A stretch of DNA of 64,000 nucleotides from Minisyncoccota bacterium (GCA_041663145.1 JBAZRG010000001.1:156942-220941), one strand, 5' to 3'; shown: positions 16,994-57,536, counted from the first letter of the stretch. Made by a program: numbers and translations. The notes: generated from the letters alone by a model not told the origin.

Positions 16994-17539
16994 TTGATGG
17001 ACGAAATAGCTAGAAATATTGCATTCATAGACGGACAAAATCTGTATATGGGAACTGCCAAGCGAAAGGTTGATCCGTGGAAGATAAATCTCAGGCGATT
17101 TCGTGTGTACTTAAAGGAAAAATATGCTGTCGATAGGGCATATTATTTTTTAGGCTATGTGCAAAACATAAGTCGAGAATTATACGACGAAATTCAAAAT
17201 ACTGGCTTTATACTCAAATTTCGAGAGCATAATCGTGCAATGATCGGAAAGAAAAAAGGTAATGTGGATTCGGATATCATTTTTCACATAATGAAGAAAA
17301 TATACAAGAAAGAGGACTTTGGGAAGGTTCTCATCGTATCTGGTGACGGTGATTACAAACTACTAGTCGATTTTTTGATAGAAGAGCAAAGATTTGGAAA
17401 GATTCTATTTCCAGATCTTGATAGAGCATCCTCTTTATATAAAAACCTATCAAACAATTACTTCGCAAGTTTAGATGATAGGAATGTTAGGGCAAAAATA
17501 TCAATGAATTATTCAGACAAAAAGAAAAGGGTGCCTTAG
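16994..17539 (+). CDS. NYN-domain (LabA-like) protein, putative RNase
   Basis: IAFIDGQNLY ... VSGDGDYKLLVDFL are typical NYN/LabA motifs. Confidence 0.55.
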   Translation: MMDEIARNIAFIDGQNLYMGTAKRKVDPWKINLRRFRVYLKEKYAVDRAYYFLGYVQNISRELYDEIQNTGFILKFREHNRAMIGKKKGNVDSDIIFHIMKKIYKKEDFGKVLIVSGDGDYKLLVDFLIEEQRFGKILFPDLDRASSLYKNLSNNYFASLDDRNVRAKISMNYSDKKKRVP

Positions 17540-17664
17540 GTAATTAGCCGTTCGGACCCCCTTTCGTCGTAGTAGGTATATACTAGCTGACTCAAAATCA
17601 AAAATCAACTTCCATTAACATCAAATGCATGTTATAGTCATTTTAGACCAAAAAGTGATTATCT

Positions 17665-17997
17665 ATGTCAAATCTAAACAATAGATTGCTCTCCAAACTG
17701 CTATGGATATACTATTGGGTCATATCCAAAATCCTGTGGAAAAGACGTCGCAGGAGAACACACAAACTTCATCAACTAATTCAACAGATCATCAGTTCAA
17801 ACGGGGACAGTGGGGCAATTGCTACATTTGAAGTCTGTGAGCACTACCACGAATACTACTGTATTCCTCTGGAGAAAGCCGGTTTCAAAGGTACACTAAA
17901 TGACCTGCGTCAACAGGCCACAAAATCAGTCGAAAGAGCCCACAAACGCGAAGAAGAAACTCTTAGAAACGCGGCTGTTTACGTTCGGAATTCCTAA
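17665..17997 (+). CDS. hypothetical protein
   Basis: 110-aa ORF with an N-terminal hydrophobic segment then an RRRRR tract. No recognised family. Confidence 0.3.
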   Translation: MSNLNNRLLSKLLWIYYWVISKILWKRRRRRTHKLHQLIQQIISSNGDSGAIATFEVCEHYHEYYCIPLEKAGFKGTLNDLRQQATKSVERAHKREEETLRNAAVYVRNS

Positions 17998-18126: not shown

Positions 18127-18726
18127 ATGATGAAACAAAAAGATGAAACAGAAAATGTTAATGATATAGAGCCGATAAAAGGTTCAGATTCAGGATCCAA
18201 TGAATTCCTCGATGATTCTGTTGTCGCTGAAGAAAATGCCACAGAAGCCATAAAAAAGCTCAAAGAAAAGCTCAAAACCTGCGAGGCAGAAAAGACTGAA
18301 TACTTAGTAGGGTGGCAAAGGGCAAAAGCTGATCAGATCAATGCTCGTAAGCGAGAAGAAGAAGAAAGAAAAGAATTCATAAAATTTTCCAATGAACGCC
18401 TGATAGAAAGTCTCATACCAGTATTGGAAAGCTTCGATATGGCGATTGGTAATAAAGTCGCTTGGGAGAAAGTCGATCAAAACTGGCGAACAGGAGTCGA
18501 GTATATTTATTCTCAACTAAAGAAGGTCCTTTCGGATGTTGGCCTTCAAGAGATCAATCCAGAAGGTGATGCCTTTGATCATAACCGCGATGAAGCCATA
18601 GAATATGTACCCGCTAAAACAAAAGCGGAACATCACAAAATTCTTTCCGTAGTCCAAAAAGGCTATTCTTTGAATAATAAATCATTACGACCACCAAAAG
18701 TAAAAGTGGGGGAGTGGAAGGAATAA
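18127..18726 (+). CDS. grpE: nucleotide exchange factor GrpE
   Basis: GrpE coiled-coil and C-terminal domain pattern (...RLIESLIPVLESFDMA...). It lies upstream of dnaK. Confidence 0.85.
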   Translation: MMKQKDETENVNDIEPIKGSDSGSNEFLDDSVVAEENATEAIKKLKEKLKTCEAEKTEYLVGWQRAKADQINARKREEEERKEFIKFSNERLIESLIPVLESFDMAIGNKVAWEKVDQNWRTGVEYIYSQLKKVLSDVGLQEINPEGDAFDHNRDEAIEYVPAKTKAEHHKILSVVQKGYSLNNKSLRPPKVKVGEWKE

Positions 18727-18749
18727 TTTGAGAATTTTATCTCGTATTA

Positions 18750-18892
18750 CCCCAACATAATGTTCCCAGAACAATCCGAGTATGCGATTGAGCTTCGAAA
18801 AATTACCCGTGTTTGGTGAAGCCTTGGAACCAAACACGGTTGTAATTTGAGAAGCGATTACGCAGGATTGTGACGGGAACATTATGTTGGGG
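18750..18892. repeat. MITE-like imperfect palindromic repeat element, copy 1 (~143 bp, 18-bp terminal inverted repeats CCCCAACATAATGTTCCC / GGGAACATTATGTTGGGG)
   Basis: A near-identical copy in reverse-complement orientation lies at 28050-28191. Internal nested hairpin CCGTGTTTGG...CCAAACACGG. Confidence 0.7.
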
Positions 18893-19108
18893 TTTATGCA
18901 TAACATAAATTGTTGAATTTTAACTTTTCTTGTAGTACCATAGATGCATAAACATGCTTACACCCTATTATCAACCACAATTTCTTTCAAGAGTCTTCAC
19001 AGATCCTACGGGTCGTCAGTTTCGATTGACTTTCCTTGTCGCTCTCGTAAATGGTGAACTAAAGGGCCGTCTAGTATCTGCCGAACCTCTATCTCAAAAT
19101 ACATCTTA

Positions 19109-19360
19109 TCACTCCATTTCCTGTGGTACGACTGATAATATTTGCCTACCGATCATCTGTTCTTCAAAAACACCTTCAACTCCATATATTCCATCATTTG
19201 CCCCTGTCGTTTCTCCATATTTTTCTCTAGAATTTCTCATAAATAGCCAACCTACGAGAGCTCCTGCGAACCTATCGTAGTTTCGATCTATAAAAGTCTT
19301 GATTGAAGACATAATAAGTCTAATGTCGATCAACACTTCTAATACATAATCTGTATTCAA
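19109..19360 (-). CDS. hypothetical small protein (weak)
   Basis: 83-aa ORF divergent from dnaK, in a 500-bp gap that is otherwise noncoding. No family recognised. Confidence 0.2.
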   Translation of the reverse strand: MNTDYVLEVLIDIRLIMSSIKTFIDRNYDRFAGALVGWLFMRNSREKYGETTGANDGIYGVEGVFEEQMIGRQILSVVPQEME

Positions 19361-19369
19361 TACAGAATT
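19341..19369 (+). promoter_or_regulatory. operator-like palindrome with three alternating half-sites, adjacent to a TATAAT box upstream of dnaK
   Basis: AATACA-TAATC-TGTATT-CA-ATACAGAATT forms overlapping inverted repeats. TATAAT lies at 19375-19380 and the dnaK ATG at 19397. Confidence 0.35.
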
Positions 19370-19396
19370 ACTAATATAATCACTGAATAAATCTCT

Positions 19397-21358
19397 ATGA
19401 GTAAAATCATCGGAATAGACCTCGGAACGACCTTCTCGGCAGTTGCCGTCATGGAAGCGGGAGTTCCGAGAGTCCTAGAAAATGCAGAAGGACAAAGAAC
19501 GACACCTTCTATCGTTGCGCAGTCAAAGACTGGCGAAAGGCTCGTTGGACTTTTGGCAAAACGCCAAGCAGTAACAAATCCAAAAAATACGATCTTCCAG
19601 ATCAAAAGATTCATGGGTCATAGTTTTGATGATCCAGGAGTTCAAAAGGACATAAAGAACGTCTCTTTTGACGTAAGAAAATCCGCGACTGGAGGCATCG
19701 AAGTCAATATGTCCGGAACATGGATGAGACCGGAAGAAGTATCAGCAATGCTCTTGCAAAAACTCAAAAATGACGCCGAGGCAAAGATAGGTGAAAAGAT
19801 CACCGAGGCAGTCATCACTGTGCCGGCGTACTTTAACGATTCACAAAGACAAGCAACAAAAGACGCAGGTAAGATCGCCGGTCTCGATGTAAAACGCATC
19901 ATCAATGAACCGACAGCCGCGGCACTCGCTTATGGCTTTAGTAAAAAGAAAGATGAAAAGATAGCAGTATTCGACTTTGGTGGTGGTACCTTCGATATAT
20001 CAATCCTAGAGGTCGGAGATGACGTCATCGAGGTCAAATCAACAGATGGCGACTCACACCTAGGTGGCCGCGATATAGACGCGAAGATCGTCAATTGGCT
20101 CGCTGATACATTCAAAAAAGAAAACGGTATAGATCTAAAATCAGATGCTTTGGCACTCCAGAGACTCGATGAAGCGTCTGAAAAGGCAAAGATCGAGCTT
20201 TCGACAGCTATGCAGACTGAGATCAATATCCCATTCGTCACATCTGGAGCTGATGGACCAAAACACTTGCTCGTAGTTATGACACGAGCAAAACTAGAAG
20301 AGATGACACAGGAGTTTGTAAATCGATCGATAGAGATCACAAAGCGTGCACTAGAAGCTTCACCTTTCAAGGTGGGAGAAATCAATGAAATAGTTCTAGT
20401 CGGCGGTCAAACAAGAATGCCGGCTTTGCAAAATGCAGTAAAACAGTTCTTCGGAAAAGATCCTCATATGGGAGTGAATCCCGACGAGGTGGTTGCGGTG
20501 GGCGCCGCTATTCAAGGCGGAATATTGGGCGGAGATGTAAAAGATGTTCTTCTCTTGGACGTCATTCCTCTCTCTCTTGGAATCGAAACACTAGGGGGAG
20601 TTGCCACAAAACTCATCGAGAAAAACACAACCGTACCAACCCAGCGCACCCAGGTCTTTTCGACTGCCGCAGACAATCAGACTTCAGTCGAAATTCACAT
20701 CAGTCAAGGAGAAAGAGCTATGGCTGCAGATAACAAATCTCTCGGCCGATTTATATTGGACGGAATTCCACCATCTCCGAGAGGTATGCCACAAGTCGAA
20801 GTCACATTTGATGTCGACGCCAACGGTATACTTAGCGTCACAGCAAAAGACAAAGCCACAGGCAAAGCTAACTCCATCAAGATCACCGCTTCTTCAGGTC
20901 TCTCAAAAGAAGAAGTTGAACGCATGAAAAATGAAGCGGCCAAACATGAAACTGAGGATAAGGCTAAACATGAAGCGATCGAAGCCAAGAACATTGCCGA
21001 ACAACTCATATACACTTCAGAAAAAGCATTGAAGGAAGCTGGTGAAAAGGTACCAGCAGATCTACGAAAAGGTATTGAAGATAAAGTTGCAGATCTCAAG
21101 AATGTAAAAGATGGCTCGGATCTGGCACTCATTAAAAAGGCCACAGAAGCATTGTCTACAGAAATTCAGAAGATCGGTCAATACATGAATTCTTCTACGA
21201 ATAATGCCGGAGGTGCTGGAAGTACCGAAGGTACACAAGCAGGTGCCAATTCCGAAGCAAATGCTGGCGGAACTCCAAATTCCAACGGATCAAACAATGC
21301 CGGAAAATCTGGTAGTGACGACAATATTCAAGACGCTGAGTTCAAAGAAAAGAAATAA
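19397..21358 (+). CDS. dnaK: chaperone DnaK (Hsp70)
   Basis: [14 protein letters not shown]...; DLGGGTFD; full-length Hsp70. Confidence 0.95.
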
Positions 21359-21364
21359 AAAAAG

Positions 21365-21416
21365 GACCCTCACAGCTTTCCCGAGAAATACTCGGGGAAG
21401 TGAATGAGGGTCTTTT
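21365..21416 (+). terminator. rho-independent terminator after dnaK
   Basis: GGACCCTCA...TGAGGGTC stem with an inner CCCGAG/CTCGGG stem, then a T-tract. Confidence 0.6.
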
Positions 21417-21436
21417 ATAGACAGAATGTGCATGCG

Positions 21437-21814
21437 CTATTGTAAACCGCGCTCTTCCACTAATGTTCGAAAGAGCTGAACCCCTCGTACACTGACACCA
21501 CTTATTCTAGATAACCTATGGTCAGTTTGTTTTATCAGGAGTCGAAGCGGGATATCGCCATAGGTCTTAAATCCGACAGCAAAGTCATTGCCAAGCGGAT
21601 TTACAGCCTTATCAAGCACACTGTGAAAGAAAGGAGTGTGACTAATTCTTTTGTCACCTTTAAAGGACTGTGCAAACTCTCGGAAGGTTAAACCTTGAGA
21701 ATCGCGATCATCAACCACTCTACTCTTATTTGACAAAATACTGCGCACCCTGTTGATCTCGACCTCTATATTTTCCAGTGACTCTAAAATCATCTTCATA
21801 TCTCTATCTATCAT
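21437..21814 (-). CDS. hypothetical protein on the opposite strand between dnaK and dnaJ
   Basis: 125-aa ORF with coding-like composition. It is convergent with dnaK and divergent from dnaJ. No family recognised. Confidence 0.4.
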   Translation of the reverse strand: MIDRDMKMILESLENIEVEINRVRSILSNKSRVVDDRDSQGLTFREFAQSFKGDKRISHTPFFHSVLDKAVNPLGNDFAVGFKTYGDIPLRLLIKQTDHRLSRISGVSVRGVQLFRTLVEERGLQ

Positions 21815-21913
21815 TTATACCTTTCCTGCAAAACTACGAGTCTTGCAAAGTACTACAAAATATCGTAACATAACAATCACAATAATGTCAATTCAAGAAT
21901 CGCATAAAAAACA

Positions 21914-23032
21914 ATGAAAGACTACTATAAAATACTGGGGGTAGATAAGGGTGCATCGAAAGAGGATATCAAAAAAGCCTTCCGTAAACAGGCGCACCAA
22001 CATCATCCCGATAAAAATAAGAACGACCCGTCTTCTTCGCAAAAATTCAAAGAAGCCAGTGAAGCGTATTCCGTATTGTCTGACGACAATAAACGCAGAC
22101 AATACGATACGTTTGGTTCGGCAGGTCCAGGCGGAGCTGGATTTAATTCTGGTCAAGGAGCTGGCGCAGGTGGCTTCGGCGGATTTGGTGGATTTGATTT
22201 TTCTGGATTTCAACAGTCCGGCGGAGAAGGCATGGAATTTGATCTGGGTGATATCTTCGGAGATCTATTCGGTGGAGGTAAGAGATCGAGCGAAAGACAG
22301 GCACGCAGACAAAGAGGTCATGATATATCTGTAGATTTACTCATTTCATTTGAAGAATCTGTATTTGGCACCGAAAAAGACCTTCTTATTACGAAGAAAT
22401 CAAAATGTCTTTCTTGTGAAGGACGTGGGGCGGCTCCTGGAACAGATCTCGAAAGCTGTAGGACTTGTAATGGTCAAGGTAAAATCAATGAAACTAAAAG
22501 GTCATTCATTGGAGTATTCAACACAACTCGAATATGTGATACCTGTCACGGACTCGGTCAAGTACCAAAAGTAAAATGTGGAACATGCAAGGGTACTGGC
22601 ATAACCGATCGACAGCAAGAGATAACTGTCAAAATTCCTGCTGGTATCGAAAATGGTCAGATGGTCAGACTATCCGGAATGGGTGAAGCAGTACCATTTG
22701 GTGATACAGGAGACCTATACGTCAAGATCCATGTAAAAGATCATTCATACATCCATCGTGATGGACACAATCTCACGACCGATATCAATCTAAAATTAAC
22801 ACAAGCCATACTAGGTGGTGAGATCAATCTCAAAACTCTTGATGGAGATATCATACTCAAAATACCCGAAGGATCGAATAAAGGCGATATACTTCGCATA
22901 AAAGGCAAGGGTATACCTGATTCCCGTGGTAAAAGAGGCGATCTACTAGTCCGATTAAATATCGAGATGCCTAGGAAACTGTCAAGAGGAGCAAAGGAGA
23001 TGATAGAAGGACTAAAAAAAGAAGGTTTTTAA
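21914..23032 (+). CDS. dnaJ: chaperone DnaJ
   Basis: J-domain (YYKILGV...HPDKN), a G/F-rich linker, and four CxxCxGxG zinc-finger repeats. Confidence 0.9.
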   Translation: MKDYYKILGVDKGASKEDIKKAFRKQAHQHHPDKNKNDPSSSQKFKEASEAYSVLSDDNKRRQYDTFGSAGPGGAGFNSGQGAGAGGFGGFGGFDFSGFQQSGGEGMEFDLGDIFGDLFGGGKRSSERQARRQRGHDISVDLLISFEESVFGTEKDLLITKKSKCLSCEGRGAAPGTDLESCRTCNGQGKINETKRSFIGVFNTTRICDTCHGLGQVPKVKCGTCKGTGITDRQQEITVKIPAGIENGQMVRLSGMGEAVPFGDTGDLYVKIHVKDHSYIHRDGHNLTTDINLKLTQAILGGEINLKTLDGDIILKIPEGSNKGDILRIKGKGIPDSRGKRGDLLVRLNIEMPRKLSRGAKEMIEGLKKEGF

Positions 23033-23072
23033 TTGGGATTGCAGAAGTGGTAAATCCGTGTAATATCTAAAT

Positions 23073-24608
23073 ATGACAATCATTACTTATGTAAAAAGAC
23101 ATAGATTCATAGCTACAGTTGGTTCAATAACCATCATATTACTGGCTATTATCCTTGGACGAATGAATGGATCCGAATCAGTATCCAATGATCCAAATTC
23201 AATCAAAAAAGTAGAACTCGTGAGTGTATCGACATTTCGAGAAGGATATTCGAATGTTCCAGCAGACGGTATAGTCGAGTCCAATGCCCAAGCCGATCTC
23301 AAGAGTCAGGTTTCTGCACTCATTTCCTCTATAAATGTAAATATCGGCGATCCTGTCTATGCAGGACAAACTATCATAGTCCTTCAAAATGCTGACATTC
23401 AAGCTCAGTTGGCTCAAGCAGAAGCATCACTTGCTCTTGCAAAAGGACAATTTGAAACTGGAGATCTGTCTCTGGATTCAGCAAAAAGCAGCGCTATGGA
23501 CAAGATAAGAGACGCTTATACCAAGGCATATGAAACAGTCTTCTCAGATATAGATCCATTGCTCTACAACTATGATGGTAGAGGTTCTCATTTCTCTGCC
23601 TTTGTCTCTGATTATACGACCAGCAATGAAATACAAAATATCAGAATCGATCTCTCGACATCATTTCGATTTTGGAAAAACATCAACGATAAACTCAATG
23701 ATTCTTCAAGCGTAGAATCTATATTGTCAGCTGTTTCCGAATCACAAAAAAATCTGACATCGATAGATCGAATGCTCGAAAATATTTCTGAAGCTCTAAA
23801 CGACCTATCGAGAGTAAGTCAAGGTGAATCCGCTACAACTGTTAATACATGGAAGACTATAGTAGCTCTATCACGATCAACTATAAATGGTTCCATTCAG
23901 ACTTTGACGGGTGCAAAAGCTACGCTATCTACTACAGGATCTACACAAAATGAAACAGCGCCAGCTCAGATACGTCTAGCTGAAGCAGGAGTCAACAATT
24001 TGAAAGCACAGCTGGCAAAAACCATCATCCGAAGTCCGATAAACGGACGAGTAGCCGCTTTACCTTTGCGTTCGGGCGAATTGGCAACACCAGGTTTACT
24101 GTTGGCAACTGTGGTGGGAGAAGGTGATCTCCTAATAAAGGCATTTGCTTCAAGTGAAGATTCACCACGGATCACGCAGGGTGCAAGCGTAACCATGGAT
24201 GGTGGCATAAAAGGCACGGTGCAAAGTTTTTCACCAAGCTTGAGTTTTAGCAATAAAAAAGTCGAAGTCATAATAAAGGTCTTGAATCCAGAAACATCCG
24301 GACTCATCGTGGGCGACAGTGTGCATGTATCCATAACCGTTCCCGATTCAAAAGTGAATAATGTCTCACAGGTTGACAATAATAACGGAAATATAAAATA
24401 CATATTGCCGATACAGAACGTAAAGATCATTCCCGGTAACGCTTTCGTATTTACAGTCGATAGTGATTCCAAGATCGTACGAAATGAAGTGACCCTAGGT
24501 GAAGTCCGCGGCGACTTTATCGAAATCAAATCCGGACTAAGAGATGATATGAATATCGTCTCTCCGGTTTACGAACTAGATGAAGGACAACAGGTCAAGA
24601 CTGATTGA
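23073..24608 (+). CDS. efflux periplasmic adaptor (HlyD/membrane-fusion protein family)
   Basis: N-terminal TM helix, a biotinyl/lipoyl-like hairpin (...INVNIGDPVYAGQTIIVL...), coiled coil and a beta-barrel C-terminus. Confidence 0.7.
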   Translation: MTIITYVKRHRFIATVGSITIILLAIILGRMNGSESVSNDPNSIKKVELVSVSTFREGYSNVPADGIVESNAQADLKSQVSALISSINVNIGDPVYAGQTIIVLQNADIQAQLAQAEASLALAKGQFETGDLSLDSAKSSAMDKIRDAYTKAYETVFSDIDPLLYNYDGRGSHFSAFVSDYTTSNEIQNIRIDLSTSFRFWKNINDKLNDSSSVESILSAVSESQKNLTSIDRMLENISEALNDLSRVSQGESATTVNTWKTIVALSRSTINGSIQTLTGAKATLSTTGSTQNETAPAQIRLAEAGVNNLKAQLAKTIIRSPINGRVAALPLRSGELATPGLLLATVVGEGDLLIKAFASSEDSPRITQGASVTMDGGIKGTVQSFSPSLSFSNKKVEVIIKVLNPETSGLIVGDSVHVSITVPDSKVNNVSQVDNNNGNIKYILPIQNVKIIPGNAFVFTVDSDSKIVRNEVTLGEVRGDFIEIKSGLRDDMNIVSPVYELDEGQQVKTD

Positions 24609-27600
24609 TCGTTAAACATACCTTTATGTCAAAAAATAATAATGATCATTCATCAGATAGTAGATATTTGGATCGGTTGACCTTCAATCCCGAACTGAGA
24701 AAGTCGTGGCTAAACTATTTCGTCACGAATTTTCGTGTAGTAGTACTACTCATTGTTGTCATTTCGACTTGGGGTTTGTATTCGTTCTTTACTTTACCCC
24801 GTGAATCCAGTCCGGAGGTCAAAATACCGATAGCGATCGTCACTACGGCTTTTCCGGGCGCGTCGCCGACAGATGTTGAACAATTCGTAACAAGAAAAAT
24901 AGAGGCAGAACTGTCGGGACTGAAGGGATTGCATAATATTACTTCAAATTCATTCAATTCTTTTTCATCGATAGTTGTCGAATTTGAAGCCAATGCCGAT
25001 ATTCAGAGTTCGATCCAAGCACTGCGTGATGCTGCTAGCAAATCGAAACCAAATATTTCCACGGAAGCCGAAGACCCCGTAGTTACCGAAATTTCCATCG
25101 ATGATATGCCGATATGGTCGATCTCGATCACTGGACCATATGATGGATTTACACTGCGAAAGTACGCCGAGGATATACAAAATGAGCTCGAAAAAATCTC
25201 GGGCGTTCGTGAGGTCAACATCTCAGGAGGGGATGTAAGAGAATATGAAATCGCGTATAGACCCGATCGTCTACTCTATTATGGAATAACTGTAAACGAT
25301 GCCAATCAAGCAGTTCTAGCTACCCGTACAGCTATTCCATCTGGAAATTTTGATACAGAAACATTCGTCGTCCCCGTAAAGACAGAAACTGGAGCAGAAA
25401 CTATTGCCGAAATTTCGAATATACCAATTTCTCATAGTGAAAATGGTAGTACAGTCATGCTTCGAGATATTGCAAATGTTTCGGAAAAAGCCGTAAAAAA
25501 ATCTTCTTATTCACGCCTATCCACCGATGGACAACCGAGTAAAAATTCAGTCAACTTATCCATCATCAAACGTCAAGGAGCATCGATATTGGAGACAGTA
25601 GATGCCGCAAAATTGACGGTTGAAAAAGCAGTGAAATCTTTTCCGCCCGGCATTACATACACAGTCGGACAAGATTTCGCGGAACTCGTCCGAAATGATT
25701 TCAATCAATTATTTCACGATTTTCTCCTGACAGTTCTTCTGGTCTCAATTATTCTATTTTTGATTGTTGGATTAAAGGAAGCATTCGTAGCCGGTCTTGC
25801 TATTCCTCTAGTATTCTTTATCACATTCGGCTGTCTATCTCTTCTCGGAATATCGCTGAACTTTCTTTCGATGTTCTCGTTGATCTTAGCGCTTGGTCTC
25901 CTTGTTGATGATGCTATAGTTGTAGTATCGGCTACTAAACAATATCTGAATACCGGAAAGTTCACGCCAGAAGAAGCGGTTCTATTGGTACTTCGAGATT
26001 TTAAGTGGGTGCTGACTACGACCACTCTAGCCACAGTCTGGGCATTTCTGCCTCTACTCTTCGCAACCGGTATTATCGGGCAATATCTGAAATCAATACC
26101 GATCACCGTATCGATCACTCTTGTCGCTTCTCTTTTGATCGCTCTTATGGTCAATCATCCTTTGGCGGCAGTACTCGAACGTATACGACTCACCCGAAAA
26201 TTCTTTTTGGCGATCGAGGCTCTGCTCATCACAGTATCCGTGATTTTGCTTTATTCAGGCGGTACATTGTCGGTTATTGTGAGCGTGATCCTGATATCGA
26301 TACTAGGCTATCTGATCTGGTGGTATGAAAAAGGTGGAAAGGAAAAGATGCTCATCAATGCCGGGACAATGGAAAAGGAATGGGAATCTGATGAATTGAT
26401 AAAAGAAAAACTTCGCATCCAAGGAAGTAGGGAACATGAAAATTTCGCAGGCAAGATCATGCACGGCATCGTCGATTTTCACCTCGTTCTACCTGTATAC
26501 GAGCGAACATTCAGACATTATATTTTGGACAAAAAGAGACGCAGGAGAGTCCTAGCCGGAGTAGTCCTCTTATTCGTTTTCTCTGTGGCACTTATACCGC
26601 TTGGTTTTGTAAAAAGTGTATTTTTCCCATTGCAAGACAGCGACTATGTATTCATCGATCTCAAAGCTCCGGTCGGCACCAATTTAATCGAAACAGACAA
26701 TCGTACGAAATCCGTAGAAAGTCAATTGCTTGGTTATAAGGAAATAGAAAGCATGACAACGATCATCGGTAGTGCCAGTGCCAACTCAGGATCATTCACC
26801 GGCGGAGGCAGTGGTACAAATCTGGCGTCGATCTCGATCACTCTCAAAGACGCCAAAGAAAGATCGGTAAAATCTTATGAATTCGCCGATACATTGAGAA
26901 AAGATCTGGCAAGTACGACAAATCTGGTAGTGAATGTTTCTACCGAATCAGGCGGTCCGCCATCAGGATCGACTTTCGAGGCCCATATCGCTGGTGATGA
27001 TCTCGACAAACTGGGAGGTATCATCCGAGATCTAAAACCGATGTTAACTTCCATAAGTGGAGTCATAAACGTCAACGTATCACAGAAAGAATCAATTCCA
27101 GAATATACCTTTGTACTTGATCCGATTGCGATGGAAAGGAACAATCTAAACTCAGCTATTGTGGGATCGGTTCTTCGCACGGCAATCTCGGGAGTTGAAC
27201 TCACAAAAATCGTTCAAGGAGAAAAAGAAATCCAACTTATCGCGACATTCGACCAGAGATCGATCCCAGATTTGGCGGCTATTCAAAATCTCCAGATCTT
27301 GAATGCCCAAAAACAGCCTGTATTTCTCAAAGATATAGCAAAGATAGAACTAAGACCGGCAGTCGATGTCATAACCAGAATCGATCAAAAAAGAACAGTG
27401 GTTTTATCAGCTGGAGCAGATTCATCGACTAATGGTCAGACGATCTTGGCCTCATTCGAGAAGAAATTGGCTGATTATGAAATGCCAGCCGGCTATACGA
27501 TCTCCTTTGGCGGAGAAAATGAACAAAATGCCGAATCCGTAGCATCGGTACTTCGAGCAATGCTCATCGCTCTGGTCCTCATCGTTGCAACACTCATCAT

Positions 27601-28030
27601 CCAGTTCAACTCTTTCCGAAAAGCCCTGATCGTCCTTGTGCCGATACCGCTAGCTCTCATCGGTGTATTTATAGGAATGGCGGTATTCGATGTTCCTCTA
27701 TCATTCCCGGGACTTATCGGTATTCTGGCTTTGTTCGGTATCGTGGTGAAAAATGCGATCATCCTAGTCGATAAGATAAACCTGAATATTAAAAGTGGTA
27801 TAACATTCGAAGATGCCATAGCGGACGCGGGCAAGTCACGATTGGAAGCAATCTTCATCACTTCTATCTGTACGATCATCGGTATATTACCAGTGACTCT
27901 TTCAAATGAACTTTGGAGGTCGCTGGGCGGCGCTGTGATATTCGGTCTCACGCTTTCATCGTTCCTGACTCTATATATCGTACCGGCATTCTTCCTGATC
28001 TTGGTTAAGGATAAAAAGCAACACTACTAG
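24605..28030 (+). CDS. RND-family efflux transporter permease (AcrB-like)
   Basis: 1141 aa. Paired large periplasmic loops and conserved TM4-like LALGLLVDDAIVVV. It overlaps the adaptor gene by 4 nt. Confidence 0.8.
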   Translation: MIVKHTFMSKNNNDHSSDSRYLDRLTFNPELRKSWLNYFVTNFRVVVLLIVVISTWGLYSFFTLPRESSPEVKIPIAIVTTAFPGASPTDVEQFVTRKIEAELSGLKGLHNITSNSFNSFSSIVVEFEANADIQSSIQALRDAASKSKPNISTEAEDPVVTEISIDDMPIWSISITGPYDGFTLRKYAEDIQNELEKISGVREVNISGGDVREYEIAYRPDRLLYYGITVNDANQAVLATRTAIPSGNFDTETFVVPVKTETGAETIAEISNIPISHSENGSTVMLRDIANVSEKAVKKSSYSRLSTDGQPSKNSVNLSIIKRQGASILETVDAAKLTVEKAVKSFPPGITYTVGQDFAELVRNDFNQLFHDFLLTVLLVSIILFLIVGLKEAFVAGLAIPLVFFITFGCLSLLGISLNFLSMFSLILALGLLVDDAIVVVSATKQYLNTGKFTPEEAVLLVLRDFKWVLTTTTLATVWAFLPLLFATGIIGQYLKSIPITVSITLVASLLIALMVNHPLAAVLERIRLTRKFFLAIEALLITVSVILLYSGGTLSVIVSVILISILGYLIWWYEKGGKEKMLINAGTMEKEWESDELIKEKLRIQGSREHENFAGKIMHGIVDFHLVLPVYERTFRHYILDKKRRRRVLAGVVLLFVFSVALIPLGFVKSVFFPLQDSDYVFIDLKAPVGTNLIETDNRTKSVESQLLGYKEIESMTTIIGSASANSGSFTGGGSGTNLASISITLKDAKERSVKSYEFADTLRKDLASTTNLVVNVSTESGGPPSGSTFEAHIAGDDLDKLGGIIRDLKPMLTSISGVINVNVSQKESIPEYTFVLDPIAMERNNLNSAIVGSVLRTAISGVELTKIVQGEKEIQLIATFDQRSIPDLAAIQNLQILNAQKQPVFLKDIAKIELRPAVDVITRIDQKRTVVLSAGADSSTNGQTILASFEKKLADYEMPAGYTISFGGENEQNAESVASVLRAMLIALVLIVATLIIQFNSFRKALIVLVPIPLALIGVFIGMAVFDVPLSFPGLIGILALFGIVVKNAIILVDKINLNIKSGITFEDAIADAGKSRLEAIFITSICTIIGILPVTLSNELWRSLGGAVIFGLTLSSFLTLYIVPAFFLILVKDKKQHY

Positions 28031-28049
28031 AATGTCATCTTCCATAGAA

Positions 28050-28191
28050 CTCAACATAATGTTCCCGCCACAATCCTGCGTAATCGCTTCTCAAATTACA
28101 ACCGTGTTTGGTTCCAAGGCTTCACCAAACACGGGTAATTTTTCGAAGCTCAATCGCATACTCGGATTGTTCTGGGAACATTATGTTGGGG
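28050..28191. repeat. MITE-like element, copy 2 (reverse-complement of the 18750-18892 copy)
   Basis: The same 16-18-bp terminal inverted repeats. The interior is the reverse complement of copy 1 with a few substitutions. Confidence 0.7.
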
Positions 28192-28273
28192 TCATGACAT
28201 AAGTTCGCAAAATATTCGACGAAAACAAATAAGGATGTGTTGGGGTTACGCCTCAGACTTTCTAGAATGTTAT

Positions 28274-28452
28274 CAACGTCACCCTCTCGCACATCTTTCT
28301 TTTTTCTTCCGAGAATAATCTGCGAAATAATATACCAATACATTTTCCAAAGGATGCGCGAATCCTTGTAGCGCATCCTTTGTGAAAATGTTGGTATATT
28401 GTGAGCAGAGTTCGAGGATGAAAAAAGAAAGATGTGCGAGAGGGTGACGTTG
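28274..28452. repeat. second, distinct 179-bp near-perfect palindromic element with 33-bp perfect terminal inverted repeats
   Basis: CAACGTCACCCTCTCGCACATCTTTCTTTTTTC at 28274-28306 has its exact reverse complement at 28420-28452. The interior is also largely self-complementary. Confidence 0.65.
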
Positions 28453-28512
28453 TAGATTACAAACAACAAACGCACGTTGTGCTTCGAGGGGTGGACGAGT
28501 TATAATTTGCCC

Positions 28513-29490
28513 ATGAAAAAGATACTAATATCCGGCGTCAAACCGACCGGCAGACCTCATATAGGTAATTATTTTGGAGCCATGAAGCAATTCGTGGATC
28601 TTTTGAAGTCAGATAAATATCATTGTTTTTTCTTTATCGCCGACTATCACGCACTCAACCTTATTCAGGACGCCAAAGAGATGAAAAGCAACACACTCGA
28701 TCTAGCAATCGATTATTTGGCACTTGGACTCGATCCTGAGAATGCCACTTTATTCAAACAGTCAGACATAGGAGCTCATACCGAAACTGCTTGGATATTC
28801 GACACCATAGTCACCGTGCCATACCTCATGCGCGCTCATGCCTACAAAGACGCTCAAGCGAAGAATGCTGAGATCAATGTTGGCACTTTCAATTATCCAG
28901 TACTTATGGCCGCAGATATCCTACTCTATGACAGCGATGTAGTACCTGTAGGACAAGATCAAAAGCAACATATCGAATATGCCCGAGACATAGCGGATAA
29001 ATTCAATCACATTTATTGTCTCGATAAAGGTCTAGATCCGATACTAAAGACACCTGAACCGCTCATACTCTCCTCAGTCGCCACAGTTCCGGGAATAGAC
29101 GGACGCAAAATGTCAAAAAGTTACAACAATACGATTTCATTGTTTGCCACACGCGAAGAAATACAAAAAGATGTGATGGGTATTGTCACCGATTCGGGTG
29201 GAACAGAAAATGAAGGCATTCCAGTCAATGTATATGCCATTCACAAACTCTTTAAGACTGAAGATGAACTCAAAACATTGTATGAGACGAATAAAGGAAA
29301 GTATAAGATTCTGAAAGAAGCGCTCATCGAAGATATCGATGCTTACATAAAACCGCTACGGGAAAAACGAGACTCTATAGCAAATGATACAGATCGTGTG
29401 ATGAAGGTTCTAGAAGACGGCGCAAAAAAAGCAAACACTATCGCAAACAAGAAACTCCTCGAAATAAAACGGGCGATTGGCGTCATCTAA
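28513..29490 (+). CDS. trpS: tryptophanyl-tRNA synthetase
   Basis: KPTGRPHIGNY (HIGH-like) ... KMSKS (GRKMSKSYNN). TATAAT at 28501-28506 lies just upstream. The start was chosen at MKKIL rather than the longer upstream ORF extension. Confidence 0.85.
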   Translation: MKKILISGVKPTGRPHIGNYFGAMKQFVDLLKSDKYHCFFFIADYHALNLIQDAKEMKSNTLDLAIDYLALGLDPENATLFKQSDIGAHTETAWIFDTIVTVPYLMRAHAYKDAQAKNAEINVGTFNYPVLMAADILLYDSDVVPVGQDQKQHIEYARDIADKFNHIYCLDKGLDPILKTPEPLILSSVATVPGIDGRKMSKSYNNTISLFATREEIQKDVMGIVTDSGGTENEGIPVNVYAIHKLFKTEDELKTLYETNKGKYKILKEALIEDIDAYIKPLREKRDSIANDTDRVMKVLEDGAKKANTIANKKLLEIKRAIGVI

Positions 29491-40638: not shown

Positions 40639-41189
40639 AACGCTCGCCACTAAAGAAAAAGTCGAAATTACCAATCAGTAGATTGCAGAGGCAAATCTGG
40701 GAATACTTGTTATTTCTTTCTGCCAAAAGAACATATAAAAAATTACAAAATAAAAATGTATTTTCAATGAAAGACGCTAAAAAATGTATCAGGTGTGGTA
40801 AGTCTTATAGTCCAACATACAATATTTCTCAAAAAGAATGGGATAAGCAAAAATATTGTACTCGTGAATGCTCATATAAAGACAGAGTTAGTATTAAAAA
40901 TCCTCAGTCTGAAGAAGGTAGAAAGAAGATGTCGCTGTCAAAGATTGGTAGAAATAATCCTAATTACAAAGAAAACGGTACGACATTAAACGCATTGCAT
41001 AGGTATATGGAAAAAAGAGTTCCCAAACCGAAATGTTGTGAGATATGTAAAATTGCTACTCCGTTAGATTTAGCCAATAAGGGAAAATATTGTCGTGATG
41101 TTAAAGAGTGGTACTGGTTATGTAGAAGATGTCACATGTTATCAGATGGGAGAATGAAAAATTTGTCTCAATATAATGAAAAGAAATAA
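40635..41189 (+). CDS. NinG-like N-terminus fused to NUMOD3 repeats and an HNH-like Cys/His cluster (homing-endonuclease-like)
   Basis: The N-terminus MKRSPLKKKSKLPISRLQRQIWEYL parallels the downstream NinG-like gene. NUMOD3-like SEEGRKKMSLSKIGRNNPNYK. C-terminal CCEICK...WLCRRCH. Confidence 0.45.
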   Translation: MKRSPLKKKSKLPISRLQRQIWEYLLFLSAKRTYKKLQNKNVFSMKDAKKCIRCGKSYSPTYNISQKEWDKQKYCTRECSYKDRVSIKNPQSEEGRKKMSLSKIGRNNPNYKENGTTLNALHRYMEKRVPKPKCCEICKIATPLDLANKGKYCRDVKEWYWLCRRCHMLSDGRMKNLSQYNEKK

Positions 41190-41571
41190 ATTAAAGAAGC
41201 AAAGCAAACAACCAATAAGCAGGCTTCAGAGGAAAATTTGGAGTTTGTGCAAACTTATTATCAGAAAAAAATATCCACACGAATGTTACACTTGTGGCGC
41301 AAAAAATCTATCAGGTTCTAACCTTCATACCGGACACATGTGGGCAAAGGCAAGTCTGGGAGCGTTCCTAAAGTACGACCTACGAGTGTTACGCCCACAG
41401 TGTTACAACTGCAACATAAACAGGGGAGGAATGGGGGCAGACTTCTACAAAAAAATGCTAAACGAAATCGGGCAAGTAGAAATGGAAAAGCTCGAAAGAG
41501 ATAGGCAAGTGAGTGTGAAAGCGTATGACCATTACTTAAAAATATTATCAGAATATCAAAAACTAGTATGA
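41176..41571 (+). CDS. ninG: NinG/Rap-family protein (recombination-associated HNH-like)
   Basis: C.TCG...TGH...LR....C..CN..RGG....Y...L.EIGQ..E.LE aligns with lambda NinG (CISCG...AGH...LRF...C.VCN..K.G....Y...L..IGQ). Confidence 0.55.
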   Translation: MKRNKLKKQSKQPISRLQRKIWSLCKLIIRKKYPHECYTCGAKNLSGSNLHTGHMWAKASLGAFLKYDLRVLRPQCYNCNINRGGMGADFYKKMLNEIGQVEMEKLERDRQVSVKAYDHYLKILSEYQKLV

Positions 41572-47585: not shown

Positions 47586-48164
47586 ATGGCAAAAGTAGGC
47601 AGACCAACAGATATAAGTTTGAATAGATGTCCACTTTGTAATGGATGTGGTGCTATTAATTATGATTTGGAAATCGCCTTAAAGGAAAAATTAAAACTTT
47701 ATGATGATAAGAAAATACCACAAAGTGCTATAACAAAAAGTATTTATGAAGTGTTATTCCTAAAGTATGGTTTTACACCAACTATTGGGGAAGCATTGGA
47801 GTTTTTTGAGATTCCTAATATTTCGATTTACAAATTCTTTTTGAGTAAAATCCAGAAAATTGGAATGGCTTTTATAAATGAAAAAGTTAATCAAAGACTT
47901 TCAAGAAGAAAAAGAATGCTTGCGATTATTTCGACAGATGATGGATCAATTACAAGGGAAACTCTTGATTCTTTAATCAAATCGCAGAATTTTAAGTGTA
48001 ATCTATGTAAGTGTTCAATAGTTGAGAGAGGTAACAGGCATGCAGATCATATAACGCCCTTATCAAAAGGAGGTGAACATCAGATAAATAACATTCAATG
48101 GTTATGTATTAATTGCAATGTGCATAAGAGTAATAAGATTAATTTCAATTTCAATGAAAAATAA
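47586..48164 (+). CDS. HNH endonuclease (terminase-associated)
   Basis: The C-terminus CNLCKC...HADHITPLSKGGEHQINNIQWLCINCNVHKSNK. It lies immediately upstream of the terminase genes. Confidence 0.6.
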   Translation: MAKVGRPTDISLNRCPLCNGCGAINYDLEIALKEKLKLYDDKKIPQSAITKSIYEVLFLKYGFTPTIGEALEFFEIPNISIYKFFLSKIQKIGMAFINEKVNQRLSRRKRMLAIISTDDGSITRETLDSLIKSQNFKCNLCKCSIVERGNRHADHITPLSKGGEHQINNIQWLCINCNVHKSNKINFNFNEK

Positions 48165-48522
48165 AGGAGGTAGACCAAAAATAATAGATGAAATCATTAT
48201 TGAAAAACTTGAGTTGGCATTTTCAATGGATGCAACTGATGATGAAGCGTGCTTTTATGCGGATATTTCACCTGCAACGCTGTATAACTATCAAAAGGAT
48301 AATCCAGTGTTTTTAGAGAGAAAAAACCAGTTAAAGCAAAATCCTGTTTTGCTTGCTCGAAAGACAGTTGTAGCGAAAATCCCAGAATCCTATCAAAACG
48401 CTATGGATTACTTGAAACGAAAGAGAAAGCGAGAGTTTGGCGATAACGTAGATATGACTACGAATGGCGAGAAGATAAACATAAGCTTCGACACTTCATT
48501 CAAACCAGATGCTTCTGTATGA
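48154..48522 (+). CDS. terminase small subunit (putative)
   Basis: MKNKGGRPKIIDEIIIEKLELAFSMDATDDEAC... gives an HTH N-terminus typical of TerS. It directly precedes TerL. Confidence 0.5.
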   Translation: MKNKGGRPKIIDEIIIEKLELAFSMDATDDEACFYADISPATLYNYQKDNPVFLERKNQLKQNPVLLARKTVVAKIPESYQNAMDYLKRKRKREFGDNVDMTTNGEKINISFDTSFKPDASV

Positions 48523-49891
48523 CAAACAAAAGATAATTGTCTCTAGTCCTGCTCGATTCAAAGTCGTTAGATCAGGTCGCAGATCAGGTAAAAGCACAGT
48601 AGCTATTGAAATCATGCTCTTTACAGCGGTCTCCAAGCGAAATCAGAATGTCTTTTACTTGAGTCCGAACATGAAGCAGTCTAGGGCTATTATCTGGGAG
48701 GCACTGAAAGCTAGGTTGAATGGCATAGGCAAGTTGAATGAAAGCAGGTTAGAAGTAGAGTTACCTACAACTGACGGCGGAGTATCGAGGATATACCTAT
48801 CAGGTTTCGAGGCGAGGGAGAACTTCAGAGGATTGCGTGCCGATCTTATAATCTTTGACGAGGTAGACACATGTAAAGACTTCTTCATTGGCTTTCAAGA
48901 GATATTCCGCCCTGCACTTATCGACACGGCCGGAAGTGTAGTATTCATCGGTACACCAAAGAAAGAAAATCCTAACCTTAGACGCTTGGAGAAAATATCA
49001 CAGACTGACAAGGACTATGCGTGCTTTCACTTTACCTCACTTGATAATCCATTCCTACCACAATCAGAAAAGGATAAAGCTAAAACAGAACTAGACTTTG
49101 ATACTTACAAGCAGGAGATACTTGCCGAGTATGTCGACAACGCTGGCTCGCTATTCAAGTATGAAGCTCTCATAGACGTATTCTCTAACACTATAGTCAA
49201 AGAGAATAGCAAGTATCTCATCGTAGACATCGCTGATGACGGCTCGGATAAGACAATATTCTCATTCTGGGAAGGACTTGAGGAGTATAAGCGTGAGGAG
49301 TTTGATAGGTTAAACACAGAAATGATTATAGGAAAGATACGAGAGTATGCCTCTACTGAACGTATCCCTTACTCGCATATAGCCGTTGATGCCATAGGCG
49401 TAGGTGCAGGTGTGGCATCTTCATCCTTGCTAGACGGTATCGTGGGATATAAGTCATCATATGGTCCAATAAAGACTGACCAGAGCATCGTGTTACTTCC
49501 TAACGCCGGATATTTCAGAGATGCTTCACTTGTATCGGAGTATAAGAACCTACGCTCTCAATGCGTATTCAATCTCGCCGACCTAGTGAACAATCACAAA
49601 ATCGCCTCAAGAGTTACTGGTCGTCAGAAAGAAGTAATCATCGAGGAACTCTCAAACTACCAAGACGCTTCACAAGGTGACGGTAAGCGTATGGCTACCA
49701 TGAAAGAGAATGTTAAAGAAGCGATAGGTCATTCACCCGATGCATCAGACTGCTACATCATGCGTATGTACTTCGTAATTCTAGGGCGTATGATACCCGG
49801 ACAGTCCGAAGAATCATCACGAGTAGCTACTATCCAACAGAATCGTTTTGCTATGAATAAAAAGAATCAGATACTAAATGGAACGAAGTAG
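48509..49891 (+). CDS. terminase large subunit
   Basis: Walker A VVRSGRRSGKST and Walker B LIIFDEVD. The size and nuclease-domain region are consistent with TerL. Confidence 0.85.
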   Translation: MLLYDKQKIIVSSPARFKVVRSGRRSGKSTVAIEIMLFTAVSKRNQNVFYLSPNMKQSRAIIWEALKARLNGIGKLNESRLEVELPTTDGGVSRIYLSGFEARENFRGLRADLIIFDEVDTCKDFFIGFQEIFRPALIDTAGSVVFIGTPKKENPNLRRLEKISQTDKDYACFHFTSLDNPFLPQSEKDKAKTELDFDTYKQEILAEYVDNAGSLFKYEALIDVFSNTIVKENSKYLIVDIADDGSDKTIFSFWEGLEEYKREEFDRLNTEMIIGKIREYASTERIPYSHIAVDAIGVGAGVASSSLLDGIVGYKSSYGPIKTDQSIVLLPNAGYFRDASLVSEYKNLRSQCVFNLADLVNNHKIASRVTGRQKEVIIEELSNYQDASQGDGKRMATMKENVKEAIGHSPDASDCYIMRMYFVILGRMIPGQSEESSRVATIQQNRFAMNKKNQILNGTK

Positions 49892-54469: not shown

Positions 54470-55252
54470 ATGCTAGTAGCAGAGAAAATCTGCACAGTAG
54501 ATCGCACTGAATCAAAATACATTCAGAACCCTTATCAGACAGCTCCTACAGCGGTCGTTCAAGCCGTAGTCGGAACATACGCAACAGCCGCTTTCACAAC
54601 GACTGAAGATGCTCTTACAGTAGCCGATGAGGTTTACTGTGCAGAACACATCTACGATTTTGAAGCCGCTCTTGCTCACTTCGACCTTTTCGCCGCTCGT
54701 GTAGACGACATGACTGCTTCGGTTGCAACAGCAATTGATAAGTATGTCTTGAACGTGCTCGTAGACGCTGGTACAGGTGCTTACACAACACTAACAGGCG
54801 GATTTACAACAGCCGCAAACTGGAATGTTATTCTCGCTAACTTGCTTTCAAAGTTTGCAGGTTATGCCGATAACTTCCGTGGTATGTACTTGGTTGTAGA
54901 GAATACCGACTTGGTAGGTATCGTGCAGTCACAAATGGCTTCTGGCTTTAATTTCGCCGATGCCGCTCTCAATAACGGTTTGGTTTCAAATCAAGCTGGT
55001 ATAGAGATTTACGTTGTCCGATCTGGCACGTTTGCTAGCTACACACCGGGTTCTTACGGTGCAGTTACAAACTCTGGTCACAGAATGGCAGGTATAAAGG
55101 GAATCTCCATTTATGCCGCTCCTCGTGGAATCCAGTACGAAGAGAAGTCTGTTAGTGCCAAGACTGGAAAAGAAGTAGTTGTCTGGGGCTATATCGGAGC
55201 CAAAACATGGGCGCCTAAGCTCGGTTTGGTCATCGACATCACAATCGCCTAA
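54470..55252 (+). CDS. major capsid protein candidate
   Basis: 260 aa, Ala/Gly/Thr-rich, directly after the scaffold-like gene. Assigned by position. Confidence 0.4.
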   Translation: MLVAEKICTVDRTESKYIQNPYQTAPTAVVQAVVGTYATAAFTTTEDALTVADEVYCAEHIYDFEAALAHFDLFAARVDDMTASVATAIDKYVLNVLVDAGTGAYTTLTGGFTTAANWNVILANLLSKFAGYADNFRGMYLVVENTDLVGIVQSQMASGFNFADAALNNGLVSNQAGIEIYVVRSGTFASYTPGSYGAVTNSGHRMAGIKGISIYAAPRGIQYEEKSVSAKTGKEVVVWGYIGAKTWAPKLGLVIDITIA

Positions 55253-57077: not shown

Positions 57078-57536
57078 ATGCAAAACACAATCAAAATAAA
57101 AGGGACTGTTGAGATAAAGCAAATTAGAAATGGAGAGGTCATTAAAAGTTTCAAGGGTGAGAACATAATTACAAATGCAGGGAAAGCACAGATAGCTCTT
57201 CTTGCAGGAGATGCTACTGCTGTTCCGTTCACTTATTTAGCAGTTGGAACAGGGTCTACCGCCGCCGCTGTGACCGATACTACGTTAGTCACCGAAATAA
57301 CCGATACAGGTCTTGCACGTGCCGCAGCAACAGTCTCTCGTACAACAACAACAGTTACAAATGACACTTTATCTTTGTCATACACATGGACAGCAACAGG
57401 AGCAAAGACGATAGCAGAAGTCGGTATGTTCAATGCTTCTTCATCGGGAACGATGCTAGGAAGAAAACTAACGAGTGCAATAACAACCGCAAATACAGAC
57501 CAAATAGTAATGACCTACACAGTAGCGTTCGCATAA
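57078..57536 (+). CDS. hypothetical virion-region protein
   Basis: 152 aa, Thr/Ala-rich. Confidence 0.4.
   Translation: MQNTIKIKGTVEIKQIRNGEVIKSFKGENIITNAGKAQIALLAGDATAVPFTYLAVGTGSTAAAVTDTTLVTEITDTGLARAAATVSRTTTTVTNDTLSLSYTWTATGAKTIAEVGMFNASSSGTMLGRKLTSAITTANTDQIVMTYTVAFA

Follow-up and report, generated by a model that had tools for sequence, protein, structure and literature searches.

Two near-identical, inverted copies of a 143-bp palindromic repeat beside heat-shock and efflux genes of a Candidatus Paceibacterota genome: a probable miniature mobile element

In a 64,000-nucleotide stretch of DNA (GCA_041663145.1, JBAZRG010000001.1:156942–220941; hereafter the window) from a metagenome-assembled genome (MAG) of Candidatus Paceibacterota, a member of the candidate phyla radiation (CPR), we identified a palindromic element of 143–145 bp. 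It is a discrete unit found in two unrelated intergenic spacers, where its copies face opposite ways and are ~99% identical, and in each case it lies 19–23 nt after the stop codon of an intact gene. The interpretation that we favour, with a probability of roughly 0.6, is that this unit is a lineage-specific, non-autonomous and non-coding mobile element copied in trans, of the type of miniature inverted-repeat transposable elements (MITEs) or of REPINs (hairpin-forming doublets of repetitive extragenic palindromic, REP, sequences). The copying would be recent and the enzyme responsible would be encoded outside the window; it may recognise either the 18-bp terminal inverted repeats (TIRs) with their AACAT-N-ATGTT dyad or the folded hairpin with its apical loop.

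A repeat search of the window recovered an inverted pair with arms at 18746–18898 and 28043–28195 (153 nt, 97% complementary, 9,144 nt apart), which contain copy 1 and its reverse complement, copy 2 (Table 1). Once copy 2 is reverse-complemented, all positions from 18749 (A) to 18889 of copy 1 are identical except for a single A/G mismatch at 18873, where copy 1 has A and the matching position of copy 2 (28068) has C on the given strand. One end of copy 2 is degenerate, with ACTCAAC replacing CCCCAAC, and blastn gave 99.3% identity over 140 nt. In the alignment the likeness fades a few bases past either end and the wider flanks are unrelated; the homology between the copies ends where the element's own palindrome ends. 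In copy 1 the palindrome reaches one base farther on each side (18749–18893), which gives the unit its size of 143–145 bp. Copy 1 lies 23 nt past the stop codon of grpE and 61 nt ahead of the start codon of a conserved 108-residue open reading frame (ORF), here termed o108, and copy 2 lies 19 nt past the stop codon of a gene for an RND permease. The GrpE and RND proteins align with those of relatives to the last residue, and the genes upstream of both copies are thus intact.

The TIRs of copy 1 are 18 bp long and perfect. Their sequence (CCCCAACATAATGTTCCC) has four matches in the window at up to three mismatches, against 0.04 expected from shuffled sequences: three are exact (18750–18767, 18875–18892 and 28174–28191) and the fourth, at the degenerate end of copy 2 (28049–28066, ACTCAAC...), carries two mismatches. 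The dyad AACATNATGTT (AACAT-N-ATGTT) is found inside each TIR and nowhere else in the window, a restriction that fits a putative dedicated binding site. Compared with its own reverse complement, the unit matches at 72% of positions and is therefore an imperfect palindrome, with a nested hairpin at its centre. Folded as RNA, copy 1 reaches −76.7 kcal/mol (z −12.1) and copy 2 −67.7 kcal/mol (z −11.6). The sole open frame of the element has no homologue among 5.8 billion proteins, which argues that the unit is non-coding. A preliminary description of this DNA had proposed a MITE-like, imperfectly palindromic element with TIRs, present in two near-identical and opposed copies; alignment, motif scan and fold confirm that description as accurate and well beyond chance.

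The arrangement is reproduced by an independent assembly. The Logan contigs of SRR18595301 are 100% identical to the window and recover three of the four element junctions (grpE–element, element–o108 and RND–element), with the copy-specific variants joined to the correct flanks. These contigs are built at k=31, and every 31-mer is distinct within an accession (PMC12424806). Two of them end exactly as two copies predict: L001 stops at 18778, where the following 31-mer (18749–18779) is the first one common to copy 2, and L062 starts at 18843 (18873 − 30), with the last 31-mer that holds the A specific to copy 1. The end of L063 in copy 2 differs. With the two window copies only, the 31-mers from 28052–28082 to 28068–28098 would be unique because they hold the copy-2-specific C at 28068, and the contig would run to 28098; it stops at 28081, which is the variant base at 28051 plus 30. 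The 31-mer 28052–28082 would then have a second predecessor, contributed by a further version of the element in the sample. This indirect k-mer evidence implies that SRR18595301 holds at least one more variant copy with the C allele and another terminus or flank. Such a copy may belong to a co-occurring relative, and a coverage gap at exactly 28081 could also have ended the contig.

Elsewhere the element was not found. Our comparisons used 54 loci from GTDB representative genomes, all Patescibacteria/CPR, together with L064–L067, which makes 58 related loci (~1 Mb), and none of these carries the element. When the element and both spacers were compared by sensitive blastn with 55 and then four more loci, the coding part of o108 alone was conserved. 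An exact pattern of the TIR plus subterminal bases gave 0 matches in the GTDB representative genomes, a gapped pattern of two TIRs gave 0 matches in IMG/VR, and blastn gave no match among plasmids and phages. The 18-mer TIR had four matches in JGI metagenome contigs, all of them isolated chance matches of 18–20 nt, and a search for spurious gene calls containing the peptide of the sole open frame yielded no candidates for other copies. The contig of the window is evidently outside the collections scanned, as its own copies were not returned, and these negative results concern other organisms. The absence of the element from all of these collections and from L066, a relative with the same gene order and 88% DnaK identity, suggests that it is young and restricted to its lineage.

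A self-complement scan of the related loci revealed many other palindromes of 80–180 bp. All those examined were strictly intergenic and several occupied the whole gap between co-oriented genes, as in L003 between dnaK and dnaJ (margins of 7 and 11 nt), in L019 behind grpE, and in L024 and L044 behind dnaJ. The long palindromes listed in Table 1 fill the spacers of co-oriented genes and leave margins of only 4–40 nt. Those of L015 and L019 have in common a 43-nt core that is 81% identical and stands at different loci. One repeat family of ~121 bp is present in at least three copies within the 12.5-kb contig L019 (3–61, 1913–2034 and 7333–7453): the third has a 96.6% identical partial copy where the contig begins (3–61, cut by the contig end) and has only 21–24-nt termini in common with 1913–2034. 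A homologue of this family, 73% identical, was found at another locus of another genome (L034 9768–9890); between L019 and L034, 6 of 37 stem pairs differ in both partners, and pairing is preserved throughout. None of the related palindromes resembles the window element in sequence; among the shorter palindromes, some are ordinary terminators extended by A/T-rich sequence. As a group, the related palindromes support a propagation of hairpin repeats within the clade.

The window also contains a second, different hairpin, which begins 82 nt beyond copy 2 and leaves 60 nt to the ATG of trpS. In this near-perfect palindrome of 179 bp, the outer arms of 42 nt match at 93% and enclose nested stems; its fold reaches −121.5 kcal/mol (z −18.5), and it is absent from relatives. 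An overall likeness of the 143-bp hairpin to the 179-bp one was rejected, as their arms are no more alike than shuffled sequences; the loops alone match. The 11-nt apical loops, GAAGCCTTGGA in the 143-bp element (18818–18828 and 28113–28123) and GAATCCTTGTA in the 179-bp hairpin (28360–28370), agree at 9 of 11 positions. Their consensus GAAKCCTTGKA occurs six times in ~1 Mb, and only the three occurrences in the window stand on perfect 10-bp stems; the chance of this match, estimated post hoc, is ~2.5e-4. With two element types only, the shared loop is a lead: the two may be recognised through the same feature, or they may descend from one ancestor whose stems have since turned over. The missing target-site duplication (see below) and the shared loop incline us slightly towards a hairpin-recognising enzyme (IS200/IS605-like, or like the REP-associated tyrosine transposases, RAYTs) over DDE cut-and-paste transposition, whereas the perfect 18-bp TIRs point to a classical MITE. 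A broader and rather doubtful proposal is that both hairpins form one class of structure-defined mobile hairpins with different stems but the shared loop GAAKCCTTGKA. An enzyme that recognises the hairpin or its loop would copy them to positions within 20-odd bases 3′ of a stop codon and leave no target duplication. The intergenic palindromes of 80–180 bp in related Paceibacteria would then represent the same phenomenon, namely hairpin elements that proliferate and evolve by compensatory changes in ultra-small genomes that are streamlined in other respects.

Several observations weigh against a mobile element. Target-site duplications are absent at both copies, with lengths of 2–9 bp tried at several candidate boundaries, and the immediate flanks (...ATTA/TTTATG... 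and ...ATGA/TTCTATG...) show no TA duplication. No transposase, recombinase or Y1/RAYT-like gene is recognisable among the window ORFs or in the Logan gene tables, and the collections scanned yielded no autonomous element that ends in these sequences. Two copies are seen directly and the third is deduced from a contig end, and Logan contigs also break for other causes, for example inside dnaK (19873 and 20500). The precise empty site is not alignable in the nearest relatives, which are too diverged (GrpE ≤79% identical), and the long hairpins that fill many Paceibacteria spacers could equally reflect a host function. Imperfect direct repeats do lie 7–70 nt from the copies, with 14 of 18 positions matching at copy 1 (AATTTGAGAATTTTATCT / AATTGTTGAATTTTAACT, 18725–18742 and 18908–18925) and 12 of 13 at copy 2 (CTAGAATGTCATC / CTAGAATGTTATC, 28027–28039 and 28262–28274). 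The left member of each pair overlaps the stop codon of the upstream gene; these repeats may be due to chance or represent a footprint of the insertion process, and the latter is unproven.

The rival that survives best, although we consider it unlikely, is a host-functional RNA hairpin, that is, an intercistronic or 3′-untranslated stem-loop serving as an mRNA stabiliser, RNase III site or attenuator. Such a hairpin would tune grpE against o108–dnaK and the pump against trpS, and its duplication would be incidental. The very stable folds agree with this role, as does the placement of both copies 19–23 nt after stop codons, between co-oriented genes and with no other terminator; yet the copies are opposed relative to transcription, and their RNAs are reverse complements of each other with different G-U content (−76.7 versus −67.7 kcal/mol). 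Long hairpins occupy like spacers of related Paceibacteria (the dnaK–dnaJ spacer of L003 and the one that follows grpE in L019), and compensatory changes preserve the stem pairing of the L019/L034 family, but the sequence at the two spacers of the window is not conserved in any relative. The hairpins also lack a T-run and an Rfam match, and 99% identity at two unrelated loci demands a copying mechanism in any case.

Searches for regulatory signals at the copies were largely negative. Against Rfam 15, the element had no match at E≤1, and the whole window had none at gathering score. A consensus scan identified no intrinsic terminator at either copy on either strand, and no T-run follows the hairpins (downstream sequences GGGGTTTATGC and GGGGTCATGAC). 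Copy 1 contains no promoter-like site, and neither do the interiors of the two copies; a weak promoter-like match (9/12) at 28032–28060 overlaps the left TIR of copy 2. Neither promoter-like nor terminator-like sites were enriched over shuffled sequences. The suggestion that copy 1 acts as a terminator is at odds with the lack of a terminator-like site and of a T-run at its hairpin. The accompanying suggestion of a transcribed hairpin fares better: since both copies are intergenic, lie between co-oriented genes and have no terminator before them, they are probably transcribed as very stable stem-loops, within the grpE–o108–dnaK and dnaJ–HlyD–RND transcripts. These stem-loops could protect upstream mRNA or dampen read-through, which would be a side effect and not the reason for the element.

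Comparison with relatives clarified what the insertions changed. The ancestral order S9–GrpE–o108–DnaK–DnaJ–TrpRS–ScpA–ScpB–FtsW was found by tblastn of the window proteins in L003, L005, L010 and L013. o108 occupies the same place in 10 of the 12 closest reference loci (L002–L005, L007–L010 and L012–L013) and in L066, with amino acid identities of 51–59% in eight of the ten reference loci and 37% in two, and its DNA is the sole part of the grpE–dnaK spacer that aligns with relatives by blastn. Thus, grpE and dnaK were already apart before the element arrived, and the idea that the element splits them has to be abandoned; direct adjacency of the two genes is confined to the more distant relatives L016–L018. 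The effect of copy 1 on the grpE–o108 spacer is a lengthening by 143 bp and nothing more. Neither Pfam nor NCBIfam has a family that matches o108, which in this Paceibacteria clade appears to belong to the heat-shock cluster without having been annotated as such.

The gene content proposed for the 9.2-kb segment between the copies (DnaK, a minus-strand ORF, DnaJ, an HlyD-type adaptor and an AcrB-type RND permease, with GrpE upstream) was borne out, but the segment is not a mobile unit. In it, o108–dnaK–dnaJ keep the ancestral order and orientation, and the dnaJ–HlyD junction of 40 bp contains nothing element-like. None of the 54 reference loci has HlyD/RND genes near dnaJ; L066/L067, which were found via the pump protein (DnaK 88% and RND 76% identical), show the order grpE–o108–(74 aa)–dnaK–dnaJ–HlyD–RND–PadR(−)–trpS, with neither the element nor a long palindrome at the corresponding sites. 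The position of the pump is therefore common to the subclade with L066/L067 and is not a recent event linked to the element. A recent joint arrival of pump and element was rejected on the same dnaJ–HlyD–RND–PadR–trpS arrangement without the element, and is also contradicted by the RND homologues of 60–78% identity that are common in Paceibacterota and by the absence of the element at dnaJ/HlyD. From these comparisons, the bracketing of dnaK, dnaJ and the pump looks like a coincidence of two independent insertions. Where L066/L067 have the minus-strand PadR-family regulator between RND and trpS (L066 11856–12803), the window has a spacer of 482 bp (28031–28512) that holds both hairpin elements. 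A degraded PadR gene under this spacer was considered and rejected, as tblastn gave no signal. Separately, the closest RND homologue (78%) is located in another Paceibacterota contig (L064 1–2826) beside genes for a relaxase (Replic_Relax) and a TrwB/VirD4-like coupling protein, which places the pump locus of that genome near conjugation-type genes.

These comparisons also bear on the proposal that the copies recombine and flip the 9.2-kb dnaK–dnaJ–pump segment to give two isoforms, for which we see little chance. RecA-dependent recombination can use homologies of ~141 bp at low frequency, and the copies offer ~141 bp of near-perfect inverted homology 9.1 kb apart. However, the MAG and the flanks in the Logan contigs fit the ancestral order and orientation of L003, L005, L010, L013 and L066, and the flipped isoform would set dnaK, dnaJ and the pump against the uniform plus-strand orientation of the genes.

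Less probable again is that a site-specific recombinase acts on the element, which would then be either an attC-like site, as in integrons, or an inverton, with the stretch between the TIRs flipping. The attC core-site consensus is RYYYAAC/GTTRRRY; the termini ACCCCAAC...GTTGGGGT resemble such core sites, and the size and imperfect palindrome fit, but the match is inexact, with one extra Y/R, and the copies enclose syntenic housekeeping genes and not cassettes. An inverton would accord with the opposite states of the two copies and with the short motifs that their plus-strand flanks have in common (ATG(A)CATAA downstream), but no promoter-like site is present in the interior, and no integrase or invertase domain is encoded in the window. 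An assembly artefact or a chimera formed at the repeat can be practically dismissed: short-read assemblers can be misled by short inverted repeats and the source is a MAG, but the independent k=31 assembly agrees at 100% identity over three junctions with the variants on the correct flanks, and the gene order agrees with that of relatives.

The features discussed are collected in Table 1. The GrpE protein encoded in the window has the same sequence as MFA6314928.1 (NCBI), and the nearest other GrpE sequences are 76–79% identical to it. All the large ORFs of the window are on the plus strand.

Table 1. Features of the repeat, its surroundings and the related loci; coordinates are those of the window unless a locus is named.
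Feature	Position	Strand	Basis or remark
Copy 1, 143-bp palindromic element	18750–18892	+	Sequence, inverted-repeat search, alignment, fold
Left TIR of copy 1, CCCCAACATAATGTTCCC	18750–18767	+	Motif scan; holds 5-1-5 palindrome AACATAATGTT; partner 18875–18892
Central nested hairpin of copy 1	18807–18839	+	11-bp perfect stem CCGTGTTTGGT/ACCAAACACGG, 11-nt apical loop GAAGCCTTGGA
Copy 2, reverse complement of copy 1	28049–28191	−	Inverted-repeat search, alignment, blastn
Central nested hairpin, copy 2 counterpart	28102–28134		Same feature as in copy 1
179-bp hairpin	28274–28452	.	
Ribosomal proteins and rpoA	Upstream of NYN-domain ORF	+	
NYN-domain ORF, 181 aa	16994–17539	+	
110-aa ORF	17665–17997	+	
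grpE	18127–18726	+	Intact to C-terminus
o108, conserved 108-aa ORF	18954–19280	+	Function unassigned
dnaK	19397–21358	+	
125-aa ORF	21437–21814	−	
dnaJ	21914–23032	+	
HlyD-type membrane-fusion (adaptor) protein of efflux pump	23073–24608	+	
AcrB-type RND permease	24626–28030	+	Intact to C-terminus; start from Logan contig gene call
trpS, class Ib aminoacyl-tRNA synthetase (tRNA-synt_1b, Trp/Tyr type)	28513–29490	+	Ancestral neighbour 3′ of dnaJ
Logan contig L001	8127–18778		100% identical to window
Logan contig L062	18843–19873		100% identical to window
Logan contig L063	20500–28081		100% identical to window
Logan contig L060	28423–39490		100% identical to window; starts 30 nt inside right arm of 179-bp hairpin
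Long palindrome (~100–180 bp)	L003 6625–6732		
Long palindrome (~100–180 bp)	L054 4035–4148		
Long palindrome (~100–180 bp)	L009 6086–6193		
Long palindrome (~100–180 bp)	L020 3912–4041		
Long palindrome (~100–180 bp)	L024 13800–13897		
Long palindrome (~100–180 bp)	L015 12827–12993		
Long palindrome (~100–180 bp)	L019 3831–4009		

Some further features of the window deserve mention. The NYN-domain and 110-aa ORFs (16994–17997) lie between rpsI and grpE, have no counterpart in the 54 related loci and look like a lineage-specific insertion beside the heat-shock genes. A possible operator is the AT-rich palindrome at 19337–19379 (TTCTAATACATAATCTGTATT / AATACAGAATTACTAATATAA), 18 nt 5′ of the dnaK start codon; a search of the window for the CIRCE operator was negative. 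The region from ~36500 to 64000 is prophage-like, with many small same-strand ORFs without family, lower GC and a higher GC skew than the rest of the window. It encodes a NinG-like ORF (41176–41571), two NUMOD3 ORFs, an HNH endonuclease (47586–48164), a large terminase (48509–49891), a major-head-protein-like ORF (54470–55252) and a Gp80 fibre-like ORF (57078–57536); neither an integrase nor a tRNA was found in this region, and a tRNA scan of the window was negative.

CPR/Patescibacteria genomes are small and compact and are generally held to be repeat-poor. If the element is mobile as we propose, a recently active hairpin repeat, together with the multi-copy palindromes of relatives, would mean that such genomes still host proliferating non-coding elements. 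A full-text literature search found no papers pairing MITE or REP elements with Patescibacteria/CPR. Elements of this kind break short-read assemblies and put very stable stem-loops into core operons (grpE–dnaK–dnaJ), and pairs of them create inverted homologies that could rearrange the chromosome. The element is of practical use as a strain-typing marker and for diagnosing MAG fragmentation. The consequence for the heat-shock operon is probably modest.

Among known systems, bacterial MITEs such as the Correia elements of Neisseria offer a close parallel, being non-coding units of ~100–150 bp with perfect TIRs that are intergenic, occur in either orientation, form hairpins and are co-transcribed with their neighbours. 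The likeness to Correia and to Rickettsia palindromic elements (RPEs) drawn in the preliminary description stands for the architecture only, given the lack of a TA duplication and of in-frame insertion. Correia elements have a characteristic 26-bp TIR and a TA duplication. Here we detected neither a TA or other target-site duplication nor IHF-like or promoter features, and CCCCAACATAATGTTCCC has no evident sequence likeness to the Correia ends. In addition, no parent insertion sequence is known, two copies are seen (at least three inferred), and the host is a CPR bacterium. RPEs are likewise palindromic repeats of ~100–150 bp in a small, reduced genome, but they are characteristically inserted in frame in protein and RNA genes, whereas both copies here are intergenic with intact neighbours. 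The attC sites of integrons (for example, the Vibrio cholerae repeats, VCRs) are imperfect palindromes of ~60–140 bp with ...AAC / GTT... termini that can be near-identical within a genome; the present element departs from them in its inexact consensus, the lack of an integrase in the window and the opposed placement of its copies around syntenic housekeeping genes and not cassettes. The REP/REPIN system, which is served by RAYT (TnpA-REP, a Y1 HUH enzyme), resembles the element as a hairpin-forming inverted doublet, extragenic and just 3′ of genes, without target duplication. Compensatory pairing in the family from related genomes adds to this likeness, and the neighbouring hairpin with the same loop suggests structure-based recognition. 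REPs usually carry a conserved 5′ tetranucleotide and number in the tens to hundreds; here the window has no RAYT gene, and typical REP stems are shorter than the perfect 18-bp TIRs. Elements of this kind are well known; the family and the host group are new, and the recognition logic is possibly new.

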